Shown in pieces: positions 1 to 13,059 of a stretch of DNA of 13,059 bases. Source of the stretch: Candidatus Hodarchaeota archaeon. Its GTDB lineage: Archaea; Asgardarchaeota; Heimdallarchaeia; Hodarchaeales; Hodarchaeaceae. Both the position numbers and the translations under genes were made by a program. The notes beneath the pieces are model-generated. The model had not been told where the DNA came from. It searched no databases and saw only the letters and a list, made by a program, of their open reading frames with translations. Numbering within the stretch: position 1 is the stretch's first letter; every line of letters begins with the position of its first letter. Location: assembly GCA_016839785.1 (NCBI GenBank), contig JAEOTQ010000008.1, forward strand, positions 1 to 13,059, written 5' to 3'.

Positions 1-340
1 CGATGAGTGGCAGTGTTTAAAACACACTGAGCATGTCAGAAAACCTCCACGCGTATTTATAAAACGAATACTGCTCTATCAACGGGATTTTTCTTCAAAA
101 ATACCCCAGCACTCGTTTACCATCTCATGGTTATCGTCGCCAATCCCCATGGCTTTTCGCTGATGGCAAAATGGATTCATCTTTTCGAGGTCCGTTTCGT
201 GCTTTCTTTTAAAGAAAGCATTCAGCACTTATCGGTTAGCGCGTGGCGGCCGGGCAGTACCCTTCCAGATAATCCGTAGACTAGAGGCACCCATATCCTG
301 TTCCTCTCGTCCTGAGGACACGTTCCTCTCACGAATCCAA
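1..340 (-). pseudogene. Degenerate 23S rRNA 3'-end (domain VI, H94-H101) fragment; longest copy (A) of the interspersed repeat, cut by the left window edge
   Basis: The + strand follows the reverse complement of the 23S 3' end in order: ctctatcaacggg (74-86), cttttcgagg..gtttcgtgct..gcattcagcacttatc (181-233), gcgcgtggcggccgggcag, actagaggcaccc, and tcctgttcctctcgtcctgagga (H95/SRL, archaeal GAGAGGAAC type). H94-like pairing tggattc(172-178)/gaatcca(333-339) is kept. The SRL is mutated (AGUACGAGAGG to AGGACGAGAGG) and similarity stops near 340, so this is not a functional rRNA gene. Confidence 0.8.
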
Positions 341-589
341 AAATATACTAATGCACCTTTAATAACTAAATCAGTAAATTAAACATCTAATTCAAATGAA
401 TTTCTTTGCAGAAATCATTAAATTATCCACTCATGGTTTAGAAAAATATATTTTCCTTTTACATTTAATAAAAGTGTTAATTGATATTATAGTAGTCTTA
501 AATGGTTGAAAATATACTCTAGTAGTATTAATAGACTTATGTACCGAAATACACTTTAAATAGTCTAATAAAAATGATATAACCAAGCT

Positions 590-651: not shown

Positions 652-1689
652 ATGGCAAGTCAATCTACATATAATTCAAGTCAACTATTCAATGATGTAT
701 CACTAGAGATACTATTTGATTTATATCATGCAAAAAAAGCTTTAACAATATATGCGTTTGATAAGAAATACTCTTATCGCCAATATCAGTATATGTTAAA
801 AAAACTTGAATCTAATCTAATAATCAAACCTTATAAGGAAGGAAAGAAGAAGTTTTACAAGTTAAATCACTTTAATAATGAGCTGGTGAGATCAGTGCTA
901 GAAATAAAAAAGTGGGAGGAAACAAATGACCATAACGAATTTCCTCAATCCCTATCAGATGACAAAAGGTTTTTTCGAGTTCTATCCGCTCTGAAAGAAA
1001 CACATGGATGGGCTTTTACTGATACAACAGCATTACTAATATGGGCACCTTTTCTTGATCTTCAATTACCATATTTTACTGTATGTGTTAGAGATCGATA
1101 TCTAAAGAGCAAACTGGAAGAAAACTTCCCACGTTCAGTTCTTAGAGTCCAGTTACAGGCAAAGTTTTTTTCACAGGAATCAAACATCACAGACATAAAA
1201 GGTGTGCCAGTGCTGAAACCAGAAATATTAGTTCCTAGACTTTTATGTGATGAAAATACCCGAGTAAGACTTTCTTCTTTGTTCTTACTTCCATTTTTAT
1301 CACCAAGAAGAGTCCTTAAATATCAAGAAAAGAATACAAAAATATTTCCAAGTATACTGTACTTTTTATTCGCGCTAGAGAATGTACTGAATAGAGATTC
1401 GACGCTTTCTACATTCTCAAGGCAATGGTTTTATAATTTTGACCATTTTGATATGAATCTGTTGTTTTCACACTATCTACAACAGATGGGTAAAAAAAGG
1501 AAGAGCAAACTAAAGCCAACAACTTTTAAGCGGTATGAGCTTTTGAGAATAAAACAACAACTACAGTCAAATCAATGGACTGAATGGGATCGACTGGGGA
1601 TGCTTTTTCCAGACAAAACGGTAAATTTTGAACCAAGTGATCTATTGGAATTAATAATCTCCTCATCTCCCTTGCTAGCAGAGGCCTGA
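652..1689 (+). CDS. Winged-helix transcriptional regulator, AbiEi-like (type IV TA) antitoxin candidate
   Basis: 345-aa ORF. The N-terminal part is wHTH-like (YSYRQYQYMLKKLESNLIIKPYKEGKKKFYKLN). The central GWAFTDTTALLIWAP...FTVCV and IKGVPVLKPEILVPRLL segments resemble the AbiEi C-terminal domain. It lies 3 bp upstream of a nucleotidyltransferase gene. Confidence 0.6.
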   Translation: MASQSTYNSSQLFNDVSLEILFDLYHAKKALTIYAFDKKYSYRQYQYMLKKLESNLIIKPYKEGKKKFYKLNHFNNELVRSVLEIKKWEETNDHNEFPQSLSDDKRFFRVLSALKETHGWAFTDTTALLIWAPFLDLQLPYFTVCVRDRYLKSKLEENFPRSVLRVQLQAKFFSQESNITDIKGVPVLKPEILVPRLLCDENTRVRLSSLFLLPFLSPRRVLKYQEKNTKIFPSILYFLFALENVLNRDSTLSTFSRQWFYNFDHFDMNLLFSHYLQQMGKKRKSKLKPTTFKRYELLRIKQQLQSNQWTEWDRLGMLFPDKTVNFEPSDLLELIISSSPLLAEA

Positions 1690-1692
1690 AAT

Positions 1693-2346
1693 GTGAATCG
1701 TGAATTCCCACGTTACAGAGACTTTCTCACCATTCAAGAAAAACTGGAAGAAAGTTGCCCAGTTCAAGTATTTGCGATTGGTGGAACATTCCTTCAAGGA
1801 TATATCAATACAGTATTCACCAGAGACATTGATATAGTGGTTGCTATCACATCATCAGTATTAAACCCAATCGAAATACTAGATCCTGTTTTAAATGATT
1901 TAGACTTCAAACGTGTGTCAACGCTGATGGATAGTTACTTTCGGTTCGAAAAAAGTGATGGGTTAAAGCTGGACGTTTTTATCAATAAGGTCTTTATGTT
2001 CACAATAACCCCTTCTATATTATCTAGGGCTATAAATAAGAAATTATCACCTGAAGATGTTTTTCTTCTAAAAGCCCAATCAACTCGTGGATTGGATAAA
2101 GAATTTACAGATTTAAAACAGATAATCTCAAATATAACTAGAGGAAAGTTCGATTATCAAATCATTGTTGAAGAAATTACCTATCAGCTAAAAAACACTA
2201 TTACTCTCAATCCTCAAAACCTTATCAGATTATTAAAAATACTCGAAGCAATTGAACAATTGAATGAAATATTCCCAGATGAGGTACCATACGTTTTCCT
2301 CAATGAGATTGAGAGGATTTATTCTCTTCACGGAATTTTTGAATAG
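1693..2346 (+). CDS. DNA pol beta-superfamily nucleotidyltransferase, AbiEii-like toxin candidate
   Basis: 217-aa ORF with GTG start. It carries the motif VFAIGG...TRDIDIVV and a later KLDVF acidic residue, plus PEDVFLLK and TDL segments typical of AbiEii-type NTases. It is tightly coupled to the upstream wHTH gene. Confidence 0.7.
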   Translation: MNREFPRYRDFLTIQEKLEESCPVQVFAIGGTFLQGYINTVFTRDIDIVVAITSSVLNPIEILDPVLNDLDFKRVSTLMDSYFRFEKSDGLKLDVFINKVFMFTITPSILSRAINKKLSPEDVFLLKAQSTRGLDKEFTDLKQIISNITRGKFDYQIIVEEITYQLKNTITLNPQNLIRLLKILEAIEQLNEIFPDEVPYVFLNEIERIYSLHGIFE

Positions 2347-2400
2347 AGACTTTAGTAAGATGAGAAACTCACACGAAAAACGAGGGTACTAATAAAAAAA

Positions 2401-2498
2401 ACCATAAGAAAGAAGACCAGACCTCTCATCAAACACATTTTACGACTCCTGAAGGCTATTTCTTTGAGAAAACGAGAGGACTGAAAATTTCCATATGG
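2401..2498 (-). repeat. Interspersed repeat copy B (3' module only, most truncated)
   Basis: gactcctgaaggctatt-tctttgaga-aaacgagaggactgaaaatttcca matches copies C, D, F and G. It ends about 10 bp from the stop codon of ORF 2509-4275. Confidence 0.9.
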
Positions 2499-2508
2499 TC
2501 TAGAGATT

Positions 2509-4275
2509 TTAGACATTCAATACGATAAGGGCTTTTGGTCGACCTCGTTTACTCCGTTTCGGACGCTGGTAAAGGACAGAAAGGTACGGGGAAGTAATTT
2601 TTTGAATCGAGGTGATAACTGAGGAAAGACGGGGACGGAGAAGACGATTACGTAAATAGAACTTCGCTTTCTGATTACCTAAATAACGTTCTTTCTGGAC
2701 CCAGAGATCTAGCACTTCTTCTCGGGTGAAAGTAACTTTTTTCGATTGAGCATAAGCGGTCTGCAAAAGGTCTTTTATGATAATGAGATCACTAGGGGCA
2801 ATATGTGGTACCTTTGGTGGATCAGTTTCAGGGGATGTTATCTCTATTCTTTCTAAATTCAATTTAACAAGTTTTTTGTACAGATTAAGCAGTCCGTTCT
2901 TATCAGATGGATGAGATTCAAAATACAAACAATCTAAATCATCTGCCAACTGCTGACCCTGCTCAGTAGTCACTTCTTCCGAATCAGTAATAACGCCAAG
3001 TATTGCAATAGGTTTCTCTACACCTTGGACTTCCCGATAATCTTGATACCAATATTGAACAGTATCAAACGAGGCCCGATCACCTTTATCAAAGATAATA
3101 ATACACCCACTTGAGCCTTCATAATAAAAACGGCGTAACTTCCCAAAATACTCCTGGCCTGCCGTGGTATGCAAGATGAGCTTCACTTCTTGATCGTTAA
3201 CCGTAATCACCTTAGATGCAATGTCAACGCCAATTGTTGGCATATAGTTCATCGAAAAAGCCCCTTCAGCCGTGTTACGAACAAGTTGACAAATCATGTT
3301 TGTAATTCTCCCAGAAATACAAACCTTGAGCACATAGCGGTCTTTCAAACGGGCCCTGGATAAAGAAGGCACCTGAGATTGTGGAACGTCTGATCTATGA
3401 AGATGCCTGTGAATCTCTTTCTTCTTCCTCTTCTGAGTGTTTAATTCAAATTGTACGGGAGAATGTTGAACCCGATTATCTGATAATCCAAGAATTTCCA
3501 GATTAGAAAGGTTTTGGAGACTTGTGGGAGGAGAAGTTAGCGTTATATTGCCCTTCAAGAATAACCTACGGAGGTGAACTAATGAACCAAGGGAAGCTGG
3601 AAGGGAAGTAAGAGAATTATATTCCAAGGATAATTCTCTTAAATTCTTAAGGTTACCAAGGGAGTCTGGAAGTGTAACAAGCTTATTGTGACGACACCAT
3701 AACTCCTGAAGATTTTTTAACCTGCCTAGTTTTTCAGGAAGTAAGCGTAAATGGTTGTAATCTAGATCTAAGACCTTAAGGTTCAAAAGGTCCCCGAAAG
3801 AATCAGGTAAGGAAGTAAGCTGACAACGCTGTAGTTTTAAGACTTCTAAATACTTAAAGACACTAATAATCGGGGGTAAAGAACCAATATTATGCCCAAT
3901 TAATGTTAATCGCAATAAATGTTGATCTTTAATTTCTAGATTTCTAATCTTGGAATTAAGTGGAAATTCTAATTGAGAACCCAGTTCTAGTAACGCTGTG
4001 GCTTCACTAGGAATGAGAAACGAACGAAGCCAATAATTTTGGAGATACTTTGGGTGAATTTCCAACCGTTTGCATTCTTTTCCTAGAAGAAAATCGAACT
4101 GTTTTATGAATTGATAGTGGCCGGTTGAAAGTAACTCTCCGATCAATTTCTCAGAAATTGCTTCTTTAAGCTGAAAATAATTTGAAAATTCCTTAATACT
4201 TAGTGATAAGTGGCCTCCTGAATTGTTAAACTCTTGGTGTATATGTTTTAAGAGATCTGCGTGTGAAATCTCCAA
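2509..4275 (-). CDS. LRR + degenerate Rab-like GTPase fusion with putative terminal winged-helix domains
   Basis: 588 aa, TTG start with SD-like GAGGG. About 7 LRRs of 23 aa (LxxLxLxxNxLxxLPxSLG). A Rab-like domain (~3336-2860) has YMPTIGVDI and TTAGQEYFGKLRRFYYEG but no GxxxxGK[ST] or NKxD. The C-terminus is basic and ends KRGRPK. Confidence 0.85.
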   Translation of the reverse strand: MEISHADLLKHIHQEFNNSGGHLSLSIKEFSNYFQLKEAISEKLIGELLSTGHYQFIKQFDFLLGKECKRLEIHPKYLQNYWLRSFLIPSEATALLELGSQLEFPLNSKIRNLEIKDQHLLRLTLIGHNIGSLPPIISVFKYLEVLKLQRCQLTSLPDSFGDLLNLKVLDLDYNHLRLLPEKLGRLKNLQELWCRHNKLVTLPDSLGNLKNLRELSLEYNSLTSLPASLGSLVHLRRLFLKGNITLTSPPTSLQNLSNLEILGLSDNRVQHSPVQFELNTQKRKKKEIHRHLHRSDVPQSQVPSLSRARLKDRYVLKVCISGRITNMICQLVRNTAEGAFSMNYMPTIGVDIASKVITVNDQEVKLILHTTAGQEYFGKLRRFYYEGSSGCIIIFDKGDRASFDTVQYWYQDYREVQGVEKPIAILGVITDSEEVTTEQGQQLADDLDCLYFESHPSDKNGLLNLYKKLVKLNLERIEITSPETDPPKVPHIAPSDLIIIKDLLQTAYAQSKKVTFTREEVLDLWVQKERYLGNQKAKFYLRNRLLRPRLSSVITSIQKITSPYLSVLYQRPKRSKRGRPKALIVLNV

Positions 4276-4470: not shown

Positions 4471-4721
4471 GTGACCATCAGACATAAGATCAGAAGACTT
4501 ACCACATATACTCTATTTGACTCCTGAAGGCTATCTTACGAGAGGACTGACAATTTTCACCTTGTTTAGAAACAATAGCCCGTGAGCGAGGAGTGGTAGT
4601 GTTTAAAACACACCGAGTATGTCGGAAAACCACCACGTGTATTTCTAGTAAGAAAACTGCTCTATCAACGGGATATTTTTTAAGAAAGATCCCAGCACTC
4701 GGTTACCATCACATGGTTACC
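4471..4721 (-). repeat. Interspersed repeat copy C (3' module plus ~145 nt of 23S-like sequence)
   Basis: 4587-4719 aligns closely with 1-133 (gtgtttaaaacacac, atgtc.gaaaacc, actgctctatcaacgggat, cccagcactcg.ttaccatc.catggtta). 4471-4586 aligns with copies B, D, F and G. Confidence 0.95.
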
Positions 4722-4743: not shown

Positions 4744-5769
4744 CTAAATTTGTTTAATTCTAAGATGTAAGATTAGATTCTCCAGTAAGGAAGAAACCGA
4801 TAAATTAGGGATCTTACTTAAGTAAAAGCGAAGATATTCACCTTCCTGCGTTTCATAGATAAGAGGGGCAAGTCTAAACGGTTCTAGAGAACGATGAAAG
4901 ACTTCCTTGGACTGTGTTTGAACAAGCCAGTCATCGCAAGAGTCTTCATAACATTGATACCCCAGATCGAAAGTTACATGAGAAAAACCATACTCCTTCA
5001 TCCGTCGGACAAGACTCAACCCAGCTAATAATTCATGAAGCTGAAGGTCAGGGGGGATGGTTTTTAGGGTGGTCTGTAGTTCTTGGAGGGAGAGACCACT
5101 ATAAATTCTAGCACAGGGATTTAATAATGAATTTTCCGTTAGATCGAGGGTTTTTAGAGTTGGAAGGTCACCTACAACCCTCGGGATAAGCGAGAAATTA
5201 TTGTTCGCTAAAACAATACATTCGATATTGGGAAGCTGACTAAGAGTGAGGGGGAGGGTAGAAAGGCGGTTTTTCCATAATTCTAGCTCTCTTAAATTAG
5301 AGAGCTGCCCAAGCGAGTCAGGTAAGTAGTCTAACTGGTTATCGTTAAGAGCAAGGCTCGTAAGCGTCCTAAGGTGGGTAAGGGAATCAGGAAGAGAAGG
5401 GAAATTATTCGAGGATAATTTAAGCACTTCGAGTTGGGTTAGCTGACTAAAGGAATCAGGAAGGGTAGAAAGCTGATTATTATCCAATAAAAGAACCTTG
5501 AGTTTTCCAAGACATCCAATACTTGGAGGTAGTGTGGAGAGAAAATTCGAACTCAGATCTAACCATTCCAGCTCCGAAAATACCTCAAAGAAATTGGGAT
5601 GTAGTTCTAAACGGTTTTTAGATAAATTAAGTCGCTTTAAGTTAATGAAAGTTGTTATAATTTCAGGGATTGAGGTTAATTTTTCTCCCTCAAAGGAGAG
5701 CTGAACCACGCGTCCTTCCTGATCGACTCCTATTCTTCCCACCTTGAGCTGTTCTTCGTGAATCTCCAA
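4744..5769 (-). CDS. Leucine-rich repeat protein
   Basis: 341 aa, TTG start with GGAG about 10 nt upstream. About 8 canonical 23-aa LRRs (e.g. LKVLLLDNNQLSTLPDSFSQLTQ) followed by a C-terminal domain of unknown function. Confidence 0.9.
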   Translation of the reverse strand: MEIHEEQLKVGRIGVDQEGRVVQLSFEGEKLTSIPEIITTFINLKRLNLSKNRLELHPNFFEVFSELEWLDLSSNFLSTLPPSIGCLGKLKVLLLDNNQLSTLPDSFSQLTQLEVLKLSSNNFPSLPDSLTHLRTLTSLALNDNQLDYLPDSLGQLSNLRELELWKNRLSTLPLTLSQLPNIECIVLANNNFSLIPRVVGDLPTLKTLDLTENSLLNPCARIYSGLSLQELQTTLKTIPPDLQLHELLAGLSLVRRMKEYGFSHVTFDLGYQCYEDSCDDWLVQTQSKEVFHRSLEPFRLAPLIYETQEGEYLRFYLSKIPNLSVSSLLENLILHLRIKQI

Positions 5770-5795
5770 TTGTGGTATACTCCATTTATAACTTG

Positions 5796-6875
5796 CTATT
5801 CCGCATAGCCATCCTCAATAACCTTTCTAGACAGATATGTAAAAATTTCAAACGCTTGGTGCAGATCAGTGGGTTTGGACTCGAAATACTTCATGTTAAG
5901 TTGAGTGGCAAGCGCTTGGCATTCCTCAAAAGAGAGTGTTTCAGAATTCTCTTCACAGTGAGTAATTAGGCCAACTAATGCAATGGGGACATCAGGTTGG
6001 ATATACGTCTGAAATTCTTTTAGCCAGTACGGAACAGCATTGAAGGTTTGACGAGAACACTTGTCAAACAAGATTGAGGCAGCACTAGCCCCCCGATAAT
6101 AAGAGGGACGGAGTTTCCCAAAAAATTCTTGTCCTGCTGTATCAACTACGATTAATTTAACTGGAATCTCTCCTACGTTAATTTTCCTAGATCGAATATC
6201 GACTCCTAGGGTAGGCATATTATCCTGTGGGTTCTTGTATCCTACAAAAGAGTGAATAAATTTGGATTTAAGTTGAGAAACACTTCCGATGACACATATC
6301 TTAAGTAAATACGCTTGGTCGTCAAAGGAGTCCTTTCGAAGCTTCTGGATAAAGATATCACTTAATTTATCTAAGAGTGATGAATTGACAATAGAAGTTT
6401 CAAAAAGCTCTAATTTAAGATTCGCTGCAGTTTCCCGAACCATCTGTGGACTCATATAGCCAGCTTCATTCTTAATACCAAGCAGGATCACAGGAAGCGA
6501 TTTTGAAGTAAAAACCCTGAGCTCTTTCAGCCAATCCTTTAGATCCTTCACTGACTCAAGATATTCGTAATCCCATACTGAAATTGCTCCCGCAGCCTCA
6601 TGATAGAATGCCCCTTTTTTTTCACTTCCCTCTTCCGAAATATCAATAGCTAAATCAGAATACGTGAAATTAAAAGTAAAATGAAATCTTCTATACGCTA
6701 CCTCGTGAATCTCAGATATAGCTTCTTGACTCTGAAATTCTGTACTGTCATTGAGAGGACTTTCTAGTTCTGGTTGAAGAAGCTTTGCCACTAGTTCACT
6801 TGGAGTGCCAATAATGACAATCTTGTAAATATCAGCGTCGTTCCCTTGGTCAGGCATGATCAGTTCTTCTTCCAC
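5796..6875 (-). CDS. Tandem two-domain Rab/Ras-like small GTPase, P-loops degenerate
   Basis: 359 aa. Domain 1: YKIVIIG...FYHEAAGAISVWD...PVILLGIK...LFETS. Domain 2: LKICVIG...NMPTLGVDI...VDTAGQEFFGKLRPSYYRGASAASILFD...YFES. Neither has an intact GxxxxGK[ST]. Confidence 0.85.
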   Translation of the reverse strand: MEEELIMPDQGNDADIYKIVIIGTPSELVAKLLQPELESPLNDSTEFQSQEAISEIHEVAYRRFHFTFNFTYSDLAIDISEEGSEKKGAFYHEAAGAISVWDYEYLESVKDLKDWLKELRVFTSKSLPVILLGIKNEAGYMSPQMVRETAANLKLELFETSIVNSSLLDKLSDIFIQKLRKDSFDDQAYLLKICVIGSVSQLKSKFIHSFVGYKNPQDNMPTLGVDIRSRKINVGEIPVKLIVVDTAGQEFFGKLRPSYYRGASAASILFDKCSRQTFNAVPYWLKEFQTYIQPDVPIALVGLITHCEENSETLSFEECQALATQLNMKYFESKPTDLHQAFEIFTYLSRKVIEDGYAE

Positions 6876-7064
6876 TCTTGGTTATTAATTCCAGGACATA
6901 TCTGTAAGAAGATTTTTCGTTCAGTAAATCTCCCGACAAAAATCAACCAAAGATCAATAATAGGAATATCTTGGATTGTTCACAATTAAGGAGTTATCTA
7001 GAGAATCTATTCGAGAAAGAATTCACAAAAAGATAAAATTACAGAGAAATTAAGGGAAAAATAA

Positions 7065-7198
7065 GTGACCACCAGACATAAGACCAGAAAACTCACGAAC
7101 ACACACTATTAGACTCCTTAAGGCTATTATTTCTAAATAAACGAGAGGCCTGAAAATTTCCACACGGAAATTCAAAAATAGCCCGTGTGCGATGAGTG
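7065..7198 (-). repeat. Interspersed repeat copy D
   Basis: gtgacca.cagacataagaccagaa..ctca..cacactatt.gactcct.aaggctatt-atttctaaat-aaacgagaggcctgaaaatttccac..aatagcccgtgtgcgatgagtg matches the other copies. Confidence 0.95.
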
Positions 7199-7395
7199 AC
7201 TGGCTGCTCCGCTTTTATTCAAGACCTCTCTACTTAATGTTTATTTTGGTGAAAGGGAAAAAATAAGAATTTAAGATTGAGAGTCTCGTGTAGATGTGGT
7301 GGATATATTTAACCAGCTGAATTTCTTTCAAAATGGGTTTATGACCCATTCACTTCTTTTTCCATCCTTATCTTGATAGATAGCTTCTTGAATAA

Positions 7396-7671: not shown

Positions 7672-7859
7672 ATTATCACCTCATTTTCGAGTTGAAACAT
7701 TACTGTAGTTTTAACAGATTGTATTTTGTATTTGCTTAGTTTTTTGCAACAATTTCTCACAAAATTAAAGCAAATTTTTTAGGAGAGGTTGTTATTTTTA
7801 AGATTTACTAAGTAAGATTTTTCATTTCAAATAATCGGACACAATTGCAGAGTACTAAA

Positions 7860-8055
7860 GACCATTATACTCAAGTTACTCACTCTTTTACGCTTCCTGG
7901 AAGCTATTTCTCCTATAACACGAGAAGATTGACCCTTTCCACTTTTCTAAATAGAAGTAGCCCGTGTGCGATTAGTGATAGTGTCTAATGCACACTGAGC
8001 ATGTCGGAAAACCACTACGCGTATTTTCTTATAGAAGACTGTTCTATCAACGGGA
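7860..8055 (-). repeat. Interspersed repeat copy E (more diverged 3' module plus ~95 nt of 23S-like sequence)
   Basis: aagctattt..acgagaagattgaccctttccac..tagcccgtgtgcgattagtg..cacactgagcatgtcggaaaaccactacgcgtattt..actgttctatcaacggga aligns with copies A and C. Confidence 0.92.
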
Positions 8056-8558
8056 GGTTTTAAAGACAGAGGAGCTTAAACTAATGGTTACAAATGCGGC
8101 AAATGCATTAAGAAAGAGAAGAAATATAGTAATTGTCGGAGTGTAAAGACGGAGAAGTTCTGGCCGACCAAGGACAGAGCGACCCAGAACCTCACTAAAA
8201 ATTGTAAAATCAAAAAACTTAAGACGGACGTACCATAAAGGAAGGAGGGGATCAATATCACTGGTGACATGAAAGGGAAAAGACAAGAAATGGGTGAGAT
8301 CAAGGTTTAAGACTGACAATAGAGAGAGAACAAGGATTATCGAAAAGATCAGCAAGTGAAGGAGAAAACGAAAGCGAGAAAACACTGATGTAAACTTCGT
8401 TGTCCCAAGATTCCAGATAAGAAACCCAAAAGCCATACTTAGCAACATAGAAATTTATCTCCCTGAAACAGAATTTGGTGAATGCAATAATAACCCTCAT
8501 AAGCCCTGAACGCTCTTTAAACACATCTGTAAGACTCTTTGAAGAAGTTTTTCCATTT

Positions 8559-11264
8559 TTACATTCTAGATTTAGACCGTTTAAGCACCATTAAATTAAA
8601 CAAGACGATAAAAACAATTAGGAAAGATAATCCATTAGCTGATGAGGGAGAAGCAATACTGATGGGGCCCACATAAACGGAAGTACTAAGCTCAGTATCA
8701 CTAGCAACAACCAATAAATAATAGGTTCCGGGAGTTAGAGTAGAGAGAGCCCAAATATATGAAGATTCTTGATAATTAGATACTATTTGTATCCACGAAC
8801 TATTATCATTGCTATAGTAAATACTGAAATAGAGGGAATCACGAAGATTTGGATCTGATGCTTCCCAAGAAATTATAATCTCCTTGGAATATTCGTTATT
8901 AACTTTTGGTGTCAGAATAGTAAGTTCAGGAGCATAATTATTAGCGATCTGAATCTGTATAACTTCTGTTACTGTAGAAGTGTCATCTGAAACCATAAAT
9001 CTTAGATAGTATATTCCATTATTTAATTCGGAGATACGCCATAAATATTGTGTTCCAGAATTAGAAACAACCAAGGGGTACCATACGACTTGATCTGAAC
9101 TATAATGAATGTCAACGAGAATTAGATCATTCTCTACATCATTAGTTGACCATTGAATTTGAATCTCGTCAGAAAAGCTCGAATAACTAAAGGGACTGGA
9201 TATTGTAAGAGTGGGGGGGATGTTTTGATTATGGATATCAATTAAAAATATTGAGGATGTGAAATCTCCACACCAAATTTCAAGAGAATAAGCACCGTCA
9301 GAGAAAAGTGTTGTATCTAGATCATAGTCAAACTCAGAGAGGTTTTCTGCAATTGATATCGAATGAGAACCATTCATCAAATAGAGATTGAAAAAACAAT
9401 CTGAAATTTCTCCACCTGTAAGGTTCCATCTAATATTGACTGTATCTATCCAAAAGGAATTAGTTAATGTCAATAAGTCGATAACAGGCATCATAAGCGA
9501 AATCGGATAGGTTTTTTGCCCAAGAGATTCCCAGACTACAACATCTGAAATATCTTTTATGGCAAGGAGGGAGTTAACGGAGGTTTTATCATAGAAATCT
9601 TTGGGAACTGTAAAATTTGAATAGAAAAATCCAGGCCTAGTTAGGGATTCAATAGTATCACCTGTTTCTTCAGCCCAAAAAAAAGGAAACGAAGTAGTGT
9701 TATACCATTCAATTATTGGATAATAGGTTGCATCTGGGAATACAAAAAGACATGAAGCAAGTAAATCGGTAGAATTCGAATCCCTCCAAATAACAAAACA
9801 TCCAAGTGAGTTATCAGTGAAGAGTGATGAGTCGTTGGTTAATTCAAGGTCATAAGACATTGAATAGATAGTGCAATTTGTAAAAAAAACATTAGAATGA
9901 TCTAACAACAAATCAAAATCAATGACACTATTAATAAACGAGGCATTGGAATTAGTAATAACAGTTTCATCAATACCTACATCGACGAGTGTTATATTGG
10001 AGGAAGAAGAATCAGTTATAAAAAATGAATTAATATCAACTGTATCTAAATATAGAGAGAAATTACTGCAATTAAAATTCACAATATTAGGAGTACTAGT
10101 AGAAGTACTTAAAATAGTTACATTAGACCCGTGGAGAGTCAGTTGTGGGATGGTTGAAGTATGCTGTAGCTCAAGAATAACATCAGCATTATTTATATCA
10201 GAATCTCCACCGATGTCAAAATTAGATATTTCTACAGTTGAATTCTCAATCAAGACACTTAAAACATAAGTATTATGGTCTGAATAACCCGAAAAAATCG
10301 AATCCTGGATAACAATGAAACCGCGAAGTTCAATTGTATCAATTACAACAATGGATCTCATACAGGAAAAATTGTCGATATTAGGGGAAGTAGTGGTTGT
10401 GCTTGAGAGAGTCACATTCGAATCATCAAGTGTTATTTGAGGAATATAGGAAGAGGGTTGTAACTCTAACACCACATTAGAATCAGAAATTTCTGTTATT
10501 CCATCGATTTCAAGATCAAAAACGGCTACAGTTGAATTCTCAATTAAAACACTAGCAACATTAGAGAAATAGTCAGCTAAACCAAAGAAAATTGAATCTT
10601 GAATAACTAAAGACCCCAAGAGCTGAATAGTATCAATCGAAATATTTGATTTGTAACATGACAAATCATTGATATTAGGAGAACTAGTAGTAGAACTAAA
10701 AAAAGTCGCATTGGAATTAATAATCGTCATTTGGGGGGTATTAGAGAAGTACAACAGCTCGAGAAGCACGTCGGAATCGACTATTTGACTTACTCCATTA
10801 ATCACTATAACACTAAAATTTACTGAAGAATTGCTTATATAAAGAAAGTTAATATCAGGAGCACTGGATGTACTCGAACTAGCGACATCTATTTCGGAAT
10901 TAATTGTAGTAAAATTGGAAATTATTGAAAAATAATCCAAATTTCCCTGAAGTAATGAATTTCCATAGACTGAACAGGTCCCTGTTAAATCTAATTTTAT
11001 AAACCGAAACTCAGAATTTGACTCGACAAGCACACTAGTTTCTACTGTGACACTAGAAGCATCTACGGTCAAAGTACCTCCATTTCTAACTATTATGCTG
11101 TTGTAAGTCTCAACAGTCGAAATTGTTATTGATTCATTATCAACTATTAGATCAGGACTAGCTACAACTATAATACTCAGGTTAGAAGTAATTATCGGGA
11201 ATATTACTATGACAAGGAGAACCTTAATTCCCATAATTTTAGCCAAAATTCCATCCTCAAACAA
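8559..11264 (-). CDS. Large cell-surface protein: signal peptide, beta-solenoid-like repeats, Ig-like domains, C-terminal TM anchor
   Basis: 901 aa; the real start may be the ATG at 11234. It has an N-terminal hydrophobic segment, a Ser/Thr/Asn/Ile-rich repeat region with many N-x-S/T sequons, about 3 Ig/FN3-like units (PTLTISSP...IQIQWSTND; PELTILTP...IIISWEASD) and a C-terminal GLSFLIVFIVLFNLMVL-KRSKSR anchor. Confidence 0.85.
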   Translation of the reverse strand: MFEDGILAKIMGIKVLLVIVIFPIITSNLSIIVVASPDLIVDNESITISTVETYNSIIVRNGGTLTVDASSVTVETSVLVESNSEFRFIKLDLTGTCSVYGNSLLQGNLDYFSIISNFTTINSEIDVASSSTSSAPDINFLYISNSSVNFSVIVINGVSQIVDSDVLLELLYFSNTPQMTIINSNATFFSSTTSSPNINDLSCYKSNISIDTIQLLGSLVIQDSIFFGLADYFSNVASVLIENSTVAVFDLEIDGITEISDSNVVLELQPSSYIPQITLDDSNVTLSSTTTTSPNIDNFSCMRSIVVIDTIELRGFIVIQDSIFSGYSDHNTYVLSVLIENSTVEISNFDIGGDSDINNADVILELQHTSTIPQLTLHGSNVTILSTSTSTPNIVNFNCSNFSLYLDTVDINSFFITDSSSSNITLVDVGIDETVITNSNASFINSVIDFDLLLDHSNVFFTNCTIYSMSYDLELTNDSSLFTDNSLGCFVIWRDSNSTDLLASCLFVFPDATYYPIIEWYNTTSFPFFWAEETGDTIESLTRPGFFYSNFTVPKDFYDKTSVNSLLAIKDISDVVVWESLGQKTYPISLMMPVIDLLTLTNSFWIDTVNIRWNLTGGEISDCFFNLYLMNGSHSISIAENLSEFDYDLDTTLFSDGAYSLEIWCGDFTSSIFLIDIHNQNIPPTLTISSPFSYSSFSDEIQIQWSTNDVENDLILVDIHYSSDQVVWYPLVVSNSGTQYLWRISELNNGIYYLRFMVSDDTSTVTEVIQIQIANNYAPELTILTPKVNNEYSKEIIISWEASDPNLRDSLYFSIYYSNDNSSWIQIVSNYQESSYIWALSTLTPGTYYLLVVASDTELSTSVYVGPISIASPSSANGLSFLIVFIVLFNLMVLKRSKSRM
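10060..10810 (-). repeat. Intragenic 294-bp (98-aa) repeat, about 2.5 units
   Basis: ttagg (PN motif) at 10087, 10381 and 10675, and ctacagttgaattctcaat at 10232 and 10526, both recur with an exact 294-bp period. Confidence 0.85.
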
Positions 11265-11371
11265 AGGTTACATTGAATTGATAAGTCAAATTGTTAATAC
11301 TCTATAAAAAATATTGGAATTCTCCAATTAATACTGTTTTCAGATTTCCACTTTTTTCCCTCAAAGGTAAA

Positions 11372-11498
11372 ATGACTATCAGAAATAAAACCAGAAGACT
11401 CATCTACACACTATGTACGACTCTTTGAGGCTATTACTTAGAAGTAAACGAGAGGACTGACAATTTCCACACGGTTAGCCCTTGTGAGAGGAGTGGTA
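11372..11498 (-). repeat. Interspersed repeat copy F
   Basis: tgactatcagaaataaaaccagaagactca..cacactat..gactctttgaggctatt-acttagaagt-aaacgagaggactgacaatttccacacgg-ttagccc..gaggagtggta matches the other copies. Confidence 0.93.
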
Positions 11499-11574: not shown

Positions 11575-12819
11575 TCACATTGCCAGCAATCTATCAATAT
11601 CTGATTGTGTTATCTCTTTGGGATCCAAATTTCTAACCAAATCTCGAATGATTCGAATTTGAGCTTCAGTCAGATTTGCAGGGAGTTTAATATCGTAATC
11701 TGCCCCTAAAAGTTCGGAAGTAGTGAAAGGTATTCGAATATTGAAATCTAGTTCTTCAAATTGCTCATATACCATCACAGTTTTGGTAATATAGGATTGA
11801 GCATTCACCATTTCTTTGAGAATTATTTCTTTTTTGGCTTGGGACTGAAGTAAATTTCGAATCTGCTTAACGAAAATCGTTAAGTTAGAATAGAAATTGT
11901 CCGGAAAATAATTATACTTAGGATGTTGCAGTATTACTTTTTTCTGTGGAGGAGAACGTATCGTAAATGCAAGTGTAAAATTATTTCTTTTATCAGGAGA
12001 ATCAGGATTTGCAGTTGCAAAACCAAAAGCAAGGATAGCACATCTCTCAAATTTTTCTCTTTGTACCCGTGCAAATATAATCCTTCCACAAGTTGGGCAT
12101 AAAGTTTGTTCATCAGTTACGAATTCAAATTCAAAGCGGCTAGGTATGATCTGATCAAGGTTTAATCCAGTTCCCACTAATCCAGTTCCAGAAAACACTC
12201 GCTCTGCAAGATTTTTAGAATTTTTTTGAGGAAAACGATTGTTAAAAGTATCCAACATTGGAATAGGGCCAGTACCATGAGAGAAAAACGACAAAAGCGA
12301 ACCATAAGAGAGTTCATCCATTCTTTTCTCAGCTTCAAGGTTAGGAATTCGGTGTATTTCGGCTTCCATCGCTTGAATCACCTTTTCTTGCAATTTGTAT
12401 TCAGTTATCGTTTTAATATCAGGATAGGTTTGTGCTGCATTGGGATATGCCAAATTAATATGTGAGAGAAGAATTTGTTCATTGAAATCGGGCTGATAGC
12501 GGGTTTGTAGCCCCCTCAGAAAATTTTTGAGGAAAATGAGCTGGATCAAACCACCTCTGTCAGAGGGATAAGAAATTGGAGAATGATTACTTGAGTGAAG
12601 CTCTTTCTGCTCAGTATGACGTCGCATGATAGTCTTGATAGAATTTTCCTTAACCCCAGTAATTTCCTGGATTTCTGAGTAAGTAAAGCCTAAACTTACA
12701 AAATAAACAATAATTAAATGTTTGATACGCATTTGAGCCATAGGTTGGGCAAGAAATTGTTTAATCAAATCATCATTCAAATCAAATAAAATCATCAAAA
12801 TCGAGAGTAAATATGACAT
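11575..12819 (-). CDS. Hypothetical protein with N-terminal HTH and a CxxC motif
   Basis: 414 aa. LGFTYSEIQEITGVKENSIKTIMRR resembles a sigma-70 region 4/LuxR-type HTH, and there is a CPTCG knuckle. No catalytic motif was recognised. Confidence 0.7.
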   Translation of the reverse strand: MSYLLSILMILFDLNDDLIKQFLAQPMAQMRIKHLIIVYFVSLGFTYSEIQEITGVKENSIKTIMRRHTEQKELHSSNHSPISYPSDRGGLIQLIFLKNFLRGLQTRYQPDFNEQILLSHINLAYPNAAQTYPDIKTITEYKLQEKVIQAMEAEIHRIPNLEAEKRMDELSYGSLLSFFSHGTGPIPMLDTFNNRFPQKNSKNLAERVFSGTGLVGTGLNLDQIIPSRFEFEFVTDEQTLCPTCGRIIFARVQREKFERCAILAFGFATANPDSPDKRNNFTLAFTIRSPPQKKVILQHPKYNYFPDNFYSNLTIFVKQIRNLLQSQAKKEIILKEMVNAQSYITKTVMVYEQFEELDFNIRIPFTTSELLGADYDIKLPANLTEAQIRIIRDLVRNLDPKEITQSDIDRLLAM

Positions 12820-12883: not shown

Positions 12884-13007
12884 ATCAAAAACCCTCCACA
12901 CACTCCAGGTGGCTCCTTAAGGCTTTTTTTCTAATTATTTGAAATAAACGAGAGGCCTGACAATTTCCACACTAATTTCAGATTAATAGCCCGTGCGCGA
13001 GGAGCGG
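12884..13007 (-). repeat. Interspersed repeat copy G
   Basis: cacacact..ggctccttaaggcttt..ttatttgaaataaacgagaggcctgacaatttccacac-taatttcagatt-aatagcccgtgcgcgaggagcgg matches the other copies. Confidence 0.92.
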
Positions 13008-13059
13008 GAGCTTGCTGAAAAATATAATTTCATGGCATTTGATTATATTTCGAATGAAA

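Follow-up and report, generated by a model that had tools for sequence, protein, structure and literature searches.

Same-strand copies of a 23S rRNA gene tail between gene cassettes in Hodarchaeota

Repeat families that descend from rRNA genes are known from eukaryotes, where rRNA-derived SINEs occur as dispersed retroposons. Repeated RNA gene ends have also been described as borders of gene cassettes: in the additive flexible genomic islands of Alteromonas, cassettes accrete at the 3' ends of tRNA and tmRNA genes, and each cassette is then followed by a partial repeat of the gene (Lopez-Perez et al. 2016, PMC4898812). Integrons and CALINs, i.e., attC arrays devoid of an integrase, were reported in Archaea (Ghaly et al. 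2022, PMC9668308). Furthermore, the element HeimM2 of Candidatus Heimdallarchaeum encodes a leucine-rich-repeat (LRR) protein together with a homing-endonuclease homologue and resides beside the 16S rRNA gene (Wu et al. 2022, PMC8813620).

The stretch of DNA analyzed in this study (the window) comprises 13,059 bp and represents the entire contig C5 of G000, a metagenome-assembled genome (MAG) of an Asgard archaeon of Hodarchaeales type (248 contigs, 4.04 Mb, 84.5% complete). Its positions 1 to 342 (minus strand) probably represent a displaced and decaying copy of the 23S rRNA gene tail, located at a cassette joint and left there by the accretion of cassettes; a probability of roughly 0.7 is assigned to this interpretation.

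Anatomy of the rRNA-derived repeat

The preliminary description of the window had derived its first 340 nucleotides from domain VI at the 3' end of 23S rRNA, and this origin was confirmed by means of Infernal in E-value mode. Positions 2725-2881 of the 2987 positions of the archaeal LSU rRNA model RF02540 were aligned to window positions 338..173 on the minus strand with 110.6 bits (E-value of 1e-32), compared with a gathering score of 50 for this model. An Rfam scan of the whole window in gathering mode with fast filters returned no matches; the fragment surfaces only in E-value mode. Within the Infernal alignment, H94 (closed by GGAUUC/GAAUCC), H95, which encloses the sarcin-ricin loop (SRL), and H97 (GUGCU/AGCAC) are paired, which bears out the earlier statement that these three stems are kept; the alignment also covers H96, and the H97 loop carries an insert of 12 nt. 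The SRL of the window reads AGGACGAGAGGAAC, and the AGGA in place of AGUA, likewise noted before, results from a U>G change at window position 311 (c on the plus strand). The features of the window, comprising rRNA-derived units and the genes located between them (cargo), are as follows.

1-342, minus strand: long repeat unit, a spare copy of 23S domain VI whose 3' side is cut by the contig start (nhmmer, reference-unit positions 28-359)
1-116, minus strand: H99-H101 region, reaching to ~15 nt short of the 23S 3' end (comparison with the full copy on contig C106)
117-172, minus strand: insert at the H98/ES39 site (comparison with the full copy on C106)
173-338, minus strand: H94-H97 with the SRL at 300-313 (LSU model alignment)
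311, minus strand: private SRL change U>G, AGUA to AGGA (LSU alignment; alignment column 68T>G)
652-2346, plus strand: cargo, a 345-aa ORF without Pfam match, then a DUF2204 nucleotidyltransferase
2398-2497, minus strand: short repeat unit, trailer part only (nhmmer, reference 384-484, E-value of 8.2e-07)
2509-4275, minus strand: cargo, LRR and Roc/Ras GTPase protein of 588 aa
4471-4721, minus strand: 5'-shortened unit, H99-H101 region and trailer (nhmmer, reference 235-484), starting 23 nt past the stop of ORF 4744-5769
4744-6875, minus strand: cargo, LRR protein (341 aa) and Ras/Roc GTPase (359 aa)
7064-7206, minus strand: short unit, last ~30 nt of 23S and trailer (nhmmer, reference 343-485)
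7857-8060, minus strand: 5'-shortened unit overlapping the stop of ORF 8047-8448 (nhmmer, reference 278-470)
8047-11264, minus strand: cargo, ORFs of 133 aa and 901 aa, no family assigned
11361-11498, minus strand: short unit (nhmmer, reference 348-491)
11575-12819, minus strand: cargo, 414-aa ORF, no family assigned
12901-13012, minus strand: short unit, 47 nt from the contig end (nhmmer, reference 345-447)

Upstream, the window fragment ceases to resemble all other copies within ~0-20 nt of the 5' strand of H94 (about 340-350 in the window). From position 343 onward, A/T-rich non-rRNA sequence and then protein ORFs follow, and no continuity with domains I-V was observed; a functional 23S rRNA gene was ruled out since these domains are missing upstream. 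No tRNA genes were detected within the window. The fragment had been described as a whole structural domain ending at ~340. Its 5' limit indeed coincides with the domain V/VI junction, whereas the repeat runs past window position 1, because the contig begins inside the repeat and other copies continue into a trailer. Identity between the window copy and the full copy on C106 amounts to 90% over 340 nt.

Complete units begin at the domain V/VI junction, include an ES39-type insert and run past the 3' end of 23S for about 130-170 nt of trailer. The LSU model was aligned to the full copy on C106 up to the 3' end at position 2987 (137.6 bits), with the insert located directly after the H94 3' strand. 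According to Penev et al. (2020, PMC7594248), Asgard LSU rRNAs bear expansion segments at the H98/ES39 site, i.e., at the same place as the insert of the unit. The true 23S tails of the related genomes G008 and G005 also possess this insert. In G008, the trailer is complementary to the leader ahead of its 23S gene, and the trailer part of the unit is therefore the 3' strand of the pre-23S processing stem.

A shared 3' limit at reference positions 480-500 was observed for 35 of the 72 nhmmer hits in the window's own genome and ten array loci. The 5' starts are less uniform: 25 of the 72 hits begin at the most frequent place, 340-360 (~30 nt before the 23S 3' end), 11 at the domain V/VI junction, and the others at intermediate positions or within the trailer. 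The trailer motifs are well conserved among units. In comparison to the true trailer of G008, most units of G000, G002, G004, G014 and G031 feature two extra small hairpins, one just past the 23S 3' end and a T-rich one after TCAGTCCTCTCGT, the stem sequences of which vary while complementarity is kept.

Cassette arrays and their position behind 23S rRNA genes

Screening of G000 by nhmmer with the full unit yielded 25 hits on 7 of the 248 contigs, seven of them in the window. Within each contig harboring several units, all hits are located on one strand (seven on C5, nine on C33, including two that belong to a single copy, and three each on C106 and C117); the chance of a single orientation in all four contigs is about 2^-17. 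Several contigs begin or end inside a unit. The cassettes between units measure 1-4 kb and contain one or two genes, and units often begin 0-25 nt past a stop codon. ORFs on the 5' side of units face in the same orientation in 39 cases and in the opposite one in 27 cases. The constant orientation of the units accordingly represents a property at the DNA level and does not result from a shared 3' UTR. A T-run of five or more following the conserved trailer motif was found in 18 of 47 motif-bearing units. Given this share and the 39 versus 27 ORFs, the units make a weak candidate for a 3' UTR or terminator of the cargo, and this possibility was set aside.

Across arrays, the cargo is of an accessory nature and includes Ras/Roc GTPases, LRR proteins, toxin-antitoxin-like pairs of PIN and nucleotidyltransferase type, and methyltransferases. 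A Ras-like cluster accounts for 20 of 188 array ORFs, and 120 of the 188 are singletons. For 103 further cargo ORFs, the matches listed include seven PIN, five methyltransferase, four beta-helix, two Fic and two nitroreductase proteins; no integrase was present among the families listed for these ORFs (25 of 93 matched). Array genes with protein identities of 83-97% recur in different genomes beside different neighbors.

Some further observations concern individual cassettes. The DUF2204 nucleotidyltransferase of the window starts 4 nt after the 345-aa ORF (652-1689), and the pair at 652-2346 is possibly antitoxin/toxin-like. An AbiEi/AbiEii pair occupies the equivalent place beside a displaced tail copy in G008; no significant similarity between window ORF 652-1689 and the AbiEi protein of G008 was detected. 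A weaker second motif (TTCTCTAG-TAACTCCTTAA-like) is located ~60-130 nt downstream (in unit sense) of the units at 4471 and 7064, and also occurs on C106 and at the loci L054 and L056. Its place is between the 3' end of the unit and the next gene, where other cassettes feature TTTATAAA-like and GGTGATC-like motifs; such motifs may represent pieces of a promoter or leader shared by cassettes. A single ORF of 3,524 aa lies between two units of the G004 array (L053:804-11378, G004:C196, minus strand), showing that cassettes can be very large.

Among five public sequencing runs found to contain this DNA, none was an RNA run. The unique parts of the window were recovered in contigs from four public DNA runs at a depth of ~2-6, compared with 16-82 for the units. 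Unit-unit 'joints' in such contigs were considered as evidence of excision and rejected: their sides comprise only 20-36 letters at 90% likeness, and they carry no weight since they probably originate from other unit copies.

The connection to a real 23S gene was observed in relatives. In G008, the 3' part of the true 23S gene (model positions 2545-2987) is located at a contig end, and two fragments on the same strand follow 7.3 and 18.6 kb further on (d1, the nearer, and d2, the more distal one), both of them covering model positions 2721-2973. In G005, a spare short unit resides 3.6 kb behind the true tail, again on the same strand. An array start at an intact 23S 3' end was thus seen in G008 and G005. 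Since no 23S gene was found in the G000 assembly upon searching this genome, the adjacency of the G000 array to an (unassembled) 23S gene is deduced from these relatives and would correspond to their arrangement.

Unit matches were obtained in 15 of 22 genomes of the genus, with 10-25 matches each in five of them, and matches of the motif scan were confined to Hodarchaeota or Heimdallarchaeota records. The trailer motif was not matched in viral contigs. In the closed genome G010, used for an empty-site comparison, just two weak nhmmer hits of ~70-80 nt were obtained, to which Infernal gave no LSU matches; likewise, G010 showed no protein similarity to the distal flanking regions of the arrays in G004 and G008. 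The window copy belongs to an A/T-richer type of tail ('type II'), and no true 23S tail of this type was found in the searches made. In metagenome contigs, the junction pattern expected of a true type II tail gave no matches, and the H94-H95 pattern of this type gave one, namely a displaced copy that has lost an internal piece of H96-H97. A displaced fragment of the G008-like type is present in G000 alongside A/T-richer copies (G000:C63:6-194, minus strand), so that two types of tail copies coexist in one genome.

Two observations relate to the 23S genes of the genus sample. The true 23S gene of G008 (L051:8272-8610, G008:C8, minus strand) features a 337-nt insert near LSU model position 2650 (H91-H92), replacing ~16 model positions; this insert is possibly an rRNA intron or intervening sequence devoid of an ORF. 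The sole full-length 23S gene in the genus sample (L009, G001:C57:307-3242) is devoid of the ES39-site insert and ~70% like the tail copies, whereas the two isolated tail fragments of G001 do carry the insert; the contig of L009 may be a binning contaminant or represent a second rRNA type.

The history of a single cassette could be followed in three genomes. In G000, G004 and G031, a 642-aa gene is followed by a unit starting at the identical place, the H94 3' strand. This unit has a ~190-nt internal deletion in G000 and is shortened and fused to the upstream region of the next cassette in G004. The shared boundary implies that a downstream unit belongs to its cassette and has a 5' limit peculiar to that cassette; many of the 'short' units are deletion derivatives.

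Since the boundary of the long copies is nearly fixed, a site-specific enzyme represents a serious, albeit rather unlikely, rival to cassette accretion by means of shared tails. Such an integron- or homing-like system would rely on a dedicated recombinase or endonuclease whose gene lies elsewhere or in unassembled DNA, and for which the units would be att- or attC-like sites in the 23S tail or trailer. Likeness to rRNA begins within one stretch of ~20 nt just upstream of H94, at the domain V/VI junction, in 16 displaced long copies from nine genomes, and the upstream flanks of these copies are unrelated to each other and to rRNA. Moreover, ten isolated fragments from seven genomes of the same genus share the model limits 2721-2973. 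The sharp 3' end of the units, the compact cassettes and unit starts close behind stop codons fit a site-specific system as well, and HeimM2 with its homing-endonuclease homologue beside the 16S gene offers a precedent (Wu 2022, PMC8813620). However, the boundary of the long copies is fixed only to within ~20 nt, and many units have intermediate 5' limits. Searches of the array contigs of five genomes (G000, G002, G004, G008 and G014) for Phage_integrase (PF00589), Resolvase (PF00239), LAGLIDADG_3 (PF14528) and the TnpB zinc-ribbon (PF07282) gave no hits, on which grounds an integrative element with its own integrase was also rejected. RNAalifold predicted no consensus structure for 61 short units on either strand, unlike attC hairpins.

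Base pairing, covariation and decay of the copies

Eighteen long copies, comprising the two true tails of G008 and G005 and 16 displaced ones, were aligned and evaluated against the consensus structure of Rfam, to which the aligned sequences had not contributed. Standard pairs were found in 92.3% of the cells, compared with 31.7-44.6% for slid partners. Changes on both sides were observed in 26 of 73 pairs, versus 2-8 with slid partners and 14.4 +/- 1.9 after shuffling (0 of 500 shuffles reach 26), and RNAalifold assigned compensatory changes to 37 of 95 pairs. With respect to the question of compensatory versus random substitutions raised in the preliminary description, the copies hence show a strong compensatory signal. 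This covariation is no proof of present function, because the signal separates sequence types, each of which was possibly once a working tail. Judged by the sequences, the covariation appears to be explained by descent from functional rRNA tails.

The canonical SRL 14-mer is present in 16 of the 18 aligned copies, including 14 of the 16 displaced ones; the window copy and d1 of G008 are the exceptions, and the AGGA variant occurs in the window copy only (1/18). Regarding private changes at columns invariant in the other 17 copies, none was found in the true G008 tail, nine in d1 (two of them in the SRL), five in d2 and three in the window copy, namely the SRL U>G and two in H96 (90C>T, 106G>A). 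Two of the private sites of the window show the canonical letters in high-depth metagenome contigs. Four of 91 pairs are broken in the window copy. The functional tail of G005 also has six private changes, with 2 of 95 pairs broken, and the contrast in decay between true and spare copies therefore rests mainly on G008. Within the rRNA part of the G008 copies, the true tail alone differs at two sites, d1 alone at 11 (in addition to a 7-nt deletion in H96), and d2 alone at 17, in a small sample polarised with a fragment from G003. A hint of recombination among units comes from the trailer, in which the true tail of G008, its two displaced copies and the fragment from G003 share variants in a mosaic manner. 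Taken by their substitutions, the spare copies appear to be under relaxed constraint, as expected of displaced gene ends.

It was also considered that the copies might act as RNA, either as a domain VI ncRNA or decoy for SRL factors, or as an rRNA terminator or processing signal reused for cassette transcripts. This would agree with the kept pairing and its both-side changes, with the canonical SRL in most displaced copies, with the fold of the window fragment, which is more stable than 100 of 100 shuffles (z = -4.52), and, for the terminator variant, with the T-runs and the unit starts right past stop codons. Against this stand the lack of domain VI in most units, the mixed orientation of neighboring ORFs, the SRL changes in two copies, the deletions in H96, and a compensatory signal that separates sequence types, each of which may have been a working tail. 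A function as RNA is thus very improbable. In particular, the exapted ncRNA or SRL decoy proposed in the preliminary description was not substantiated: AGGA is a one-off, and spare copies gather private changes at invariant sites while the true tail of G008 does not. The 'recombination site' proposed there as another role comes close to the anatomy observed, i.e., same-orientation cassette joints and arrays behind the 23S gene in two relatives.

Least probable of all is an origin as a dispersed, SINE-like retroposon or MITE derived from rRNA, as mere rRNA debris or as an artefact of assembly, since, although 5'-shortened copies with a common 3' end recall reverse-transcribed retroposons and contigs break at units, the copies are confined to few contigs with one orientation per contig instead of being dispersed in either orientation, the architecture recurs in independently assembled genomes, three of which share an orthologous cassette with a common unit boundary, and the unique parts of the window are present in public DNA runs.

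Cassette accretion and comparison with known systems

According to the accretion interpretation preferred here, incoming DNA would bring its own copy of the 23S tail and trailer, which would recombine either with the tail of the resident gene or with one of the spare copies of the array; this could occur by single- or double-crossover homologous recombination or by means of a trans-acting enzyme. Each event would add cargo as well as one more tail copy behind the gene. Displaced copies, being outside the ribosome, would then degenerate through point changes, of which the SRL U>G is an example, and through deletions located internally or at the 5' side. This mechanism is conjectural, given that a recombinase or nuclease was not found on the array contigs. 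Moreover, the high pairing and the intact SRLs of displaced copies could reflect selection on the copies themselves, and the conserved trailer motifs as well as the missing true type II tail also speak against accretion.

A further-reaching, tentative proposal, which is considered possible but doubtful, regards the spare tails as functional elements of a platform that is anchored on the rRNA gene and captures genes without an integrase, with the tail serving as a homology handle screened for ribosome competence. Whenever a handle lands in the live gene, part of it would join the functional 23S rRNA and its processing stem, so that handles would be screened repeatedly. Such screening would explain why 92% of pairs are kept in types that are ~20% apart and why the SRL is intact in 14 of the 16 displaced copies.

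In full-text literature searches covering main articles, no description of 23S-tail cassette arrays was found; the text of the Atabeyarchaeia mobile-element paper (PMC11529989) contains neither '23S' nor 'rRNA', and no mention of 23S tail repeats was found in the accessible text of Wu et al. (2022, PMC8813620). For practical work, it is of importance that MAG assemblies break at the units, that the units may be taken erroneously for rRNA genes or novel ncRNAs, and that covariation tests on such tail copies yield false evidence of present function. Hodarchaeales represent the group placed closest to eukaryotes. If recombination with the live gene tail takes place, horizontal gene flow would be linked to ribosome evolution and processing in Hodarchaeales, and if the tails form a capture platform, the flow of accessory genes and the evolution of the rRNA tail would be coupled in these archaea.

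Like rRNA-derived SINEs, the units constitute a repeat family descended from an rRNA gene. Unlike these dispersed elements, they occur in clusters of a single orientation and are bound to the downstream region of the rRNA gene itself; with 25 hits on 7 of 248 contigs and one orientation per contig, identity as an rRNA-derived SINE or MITE was rejected.

HeimM2 (Wu et al. 2022) shares with the arrays the mobile insert by an rRNA gene, the archaeal group and leucine-rich-repeat cargo. It differs in its location on the 16S side and its homing-endonuclease homologue, in contrast to the array contigs behind the 23S tail, which gave no LAGLIDADG_3 hits. Separately from the arrays, a LAGLIDADG_3 match in a 232-aa open frame was observed in G008 (G008:C9:2500-2730, minus strand) ~1 kb upstream of the 23S 5' end, hence in or beside the 16S gene or the spacer, which recalls HeimM2.

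Integrons and CALINs resemble the arrays in their compact one- or two-gene cassettes, the repeat of constant orientation after each of them and the common toxin-antitoxin-like cargo. In contrast to them, no IntI-type tyrosine recombinase was found on the array contigs, the units are recognisable rRNA gene tails without an attC-like hairpin fold, and the facing of the cargo is mixed (39 vs 27).

With the additive flexible genomic islands (Lopez-Perez et al. 2016), the arrays share the conserved RNA gene end as insertion hotspot, the direct repeat of a gene part after each cassette, cassette content that differs between close relatives, and the occurrence of the same cassettes in different species. 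Accordingly, the 23S-tail arrays display same-orientation repeats of a gene's 3' part bounding the inserts, and their content is variable and reshuffled. In contrast to these islands, the arrays consist of dozens of very small cassettes, occur in Asgard archaea and have no integrase on the array contigs examined; the anchor comprises the 23S tail and processing arm, i.e., hundreds of bases, instead of the short tRNA 3' segment of tRNA islands. Capture hotspots with repeated gene ends are thus already known at tRNA and tmRNA genes, whereas the anchor of the present arrays is an rRNA gene, with a repeat of several hundred bases that includes the sarcin-ricin loop and the pre-rRNA processing arm and bounds dozens of small cassettes.
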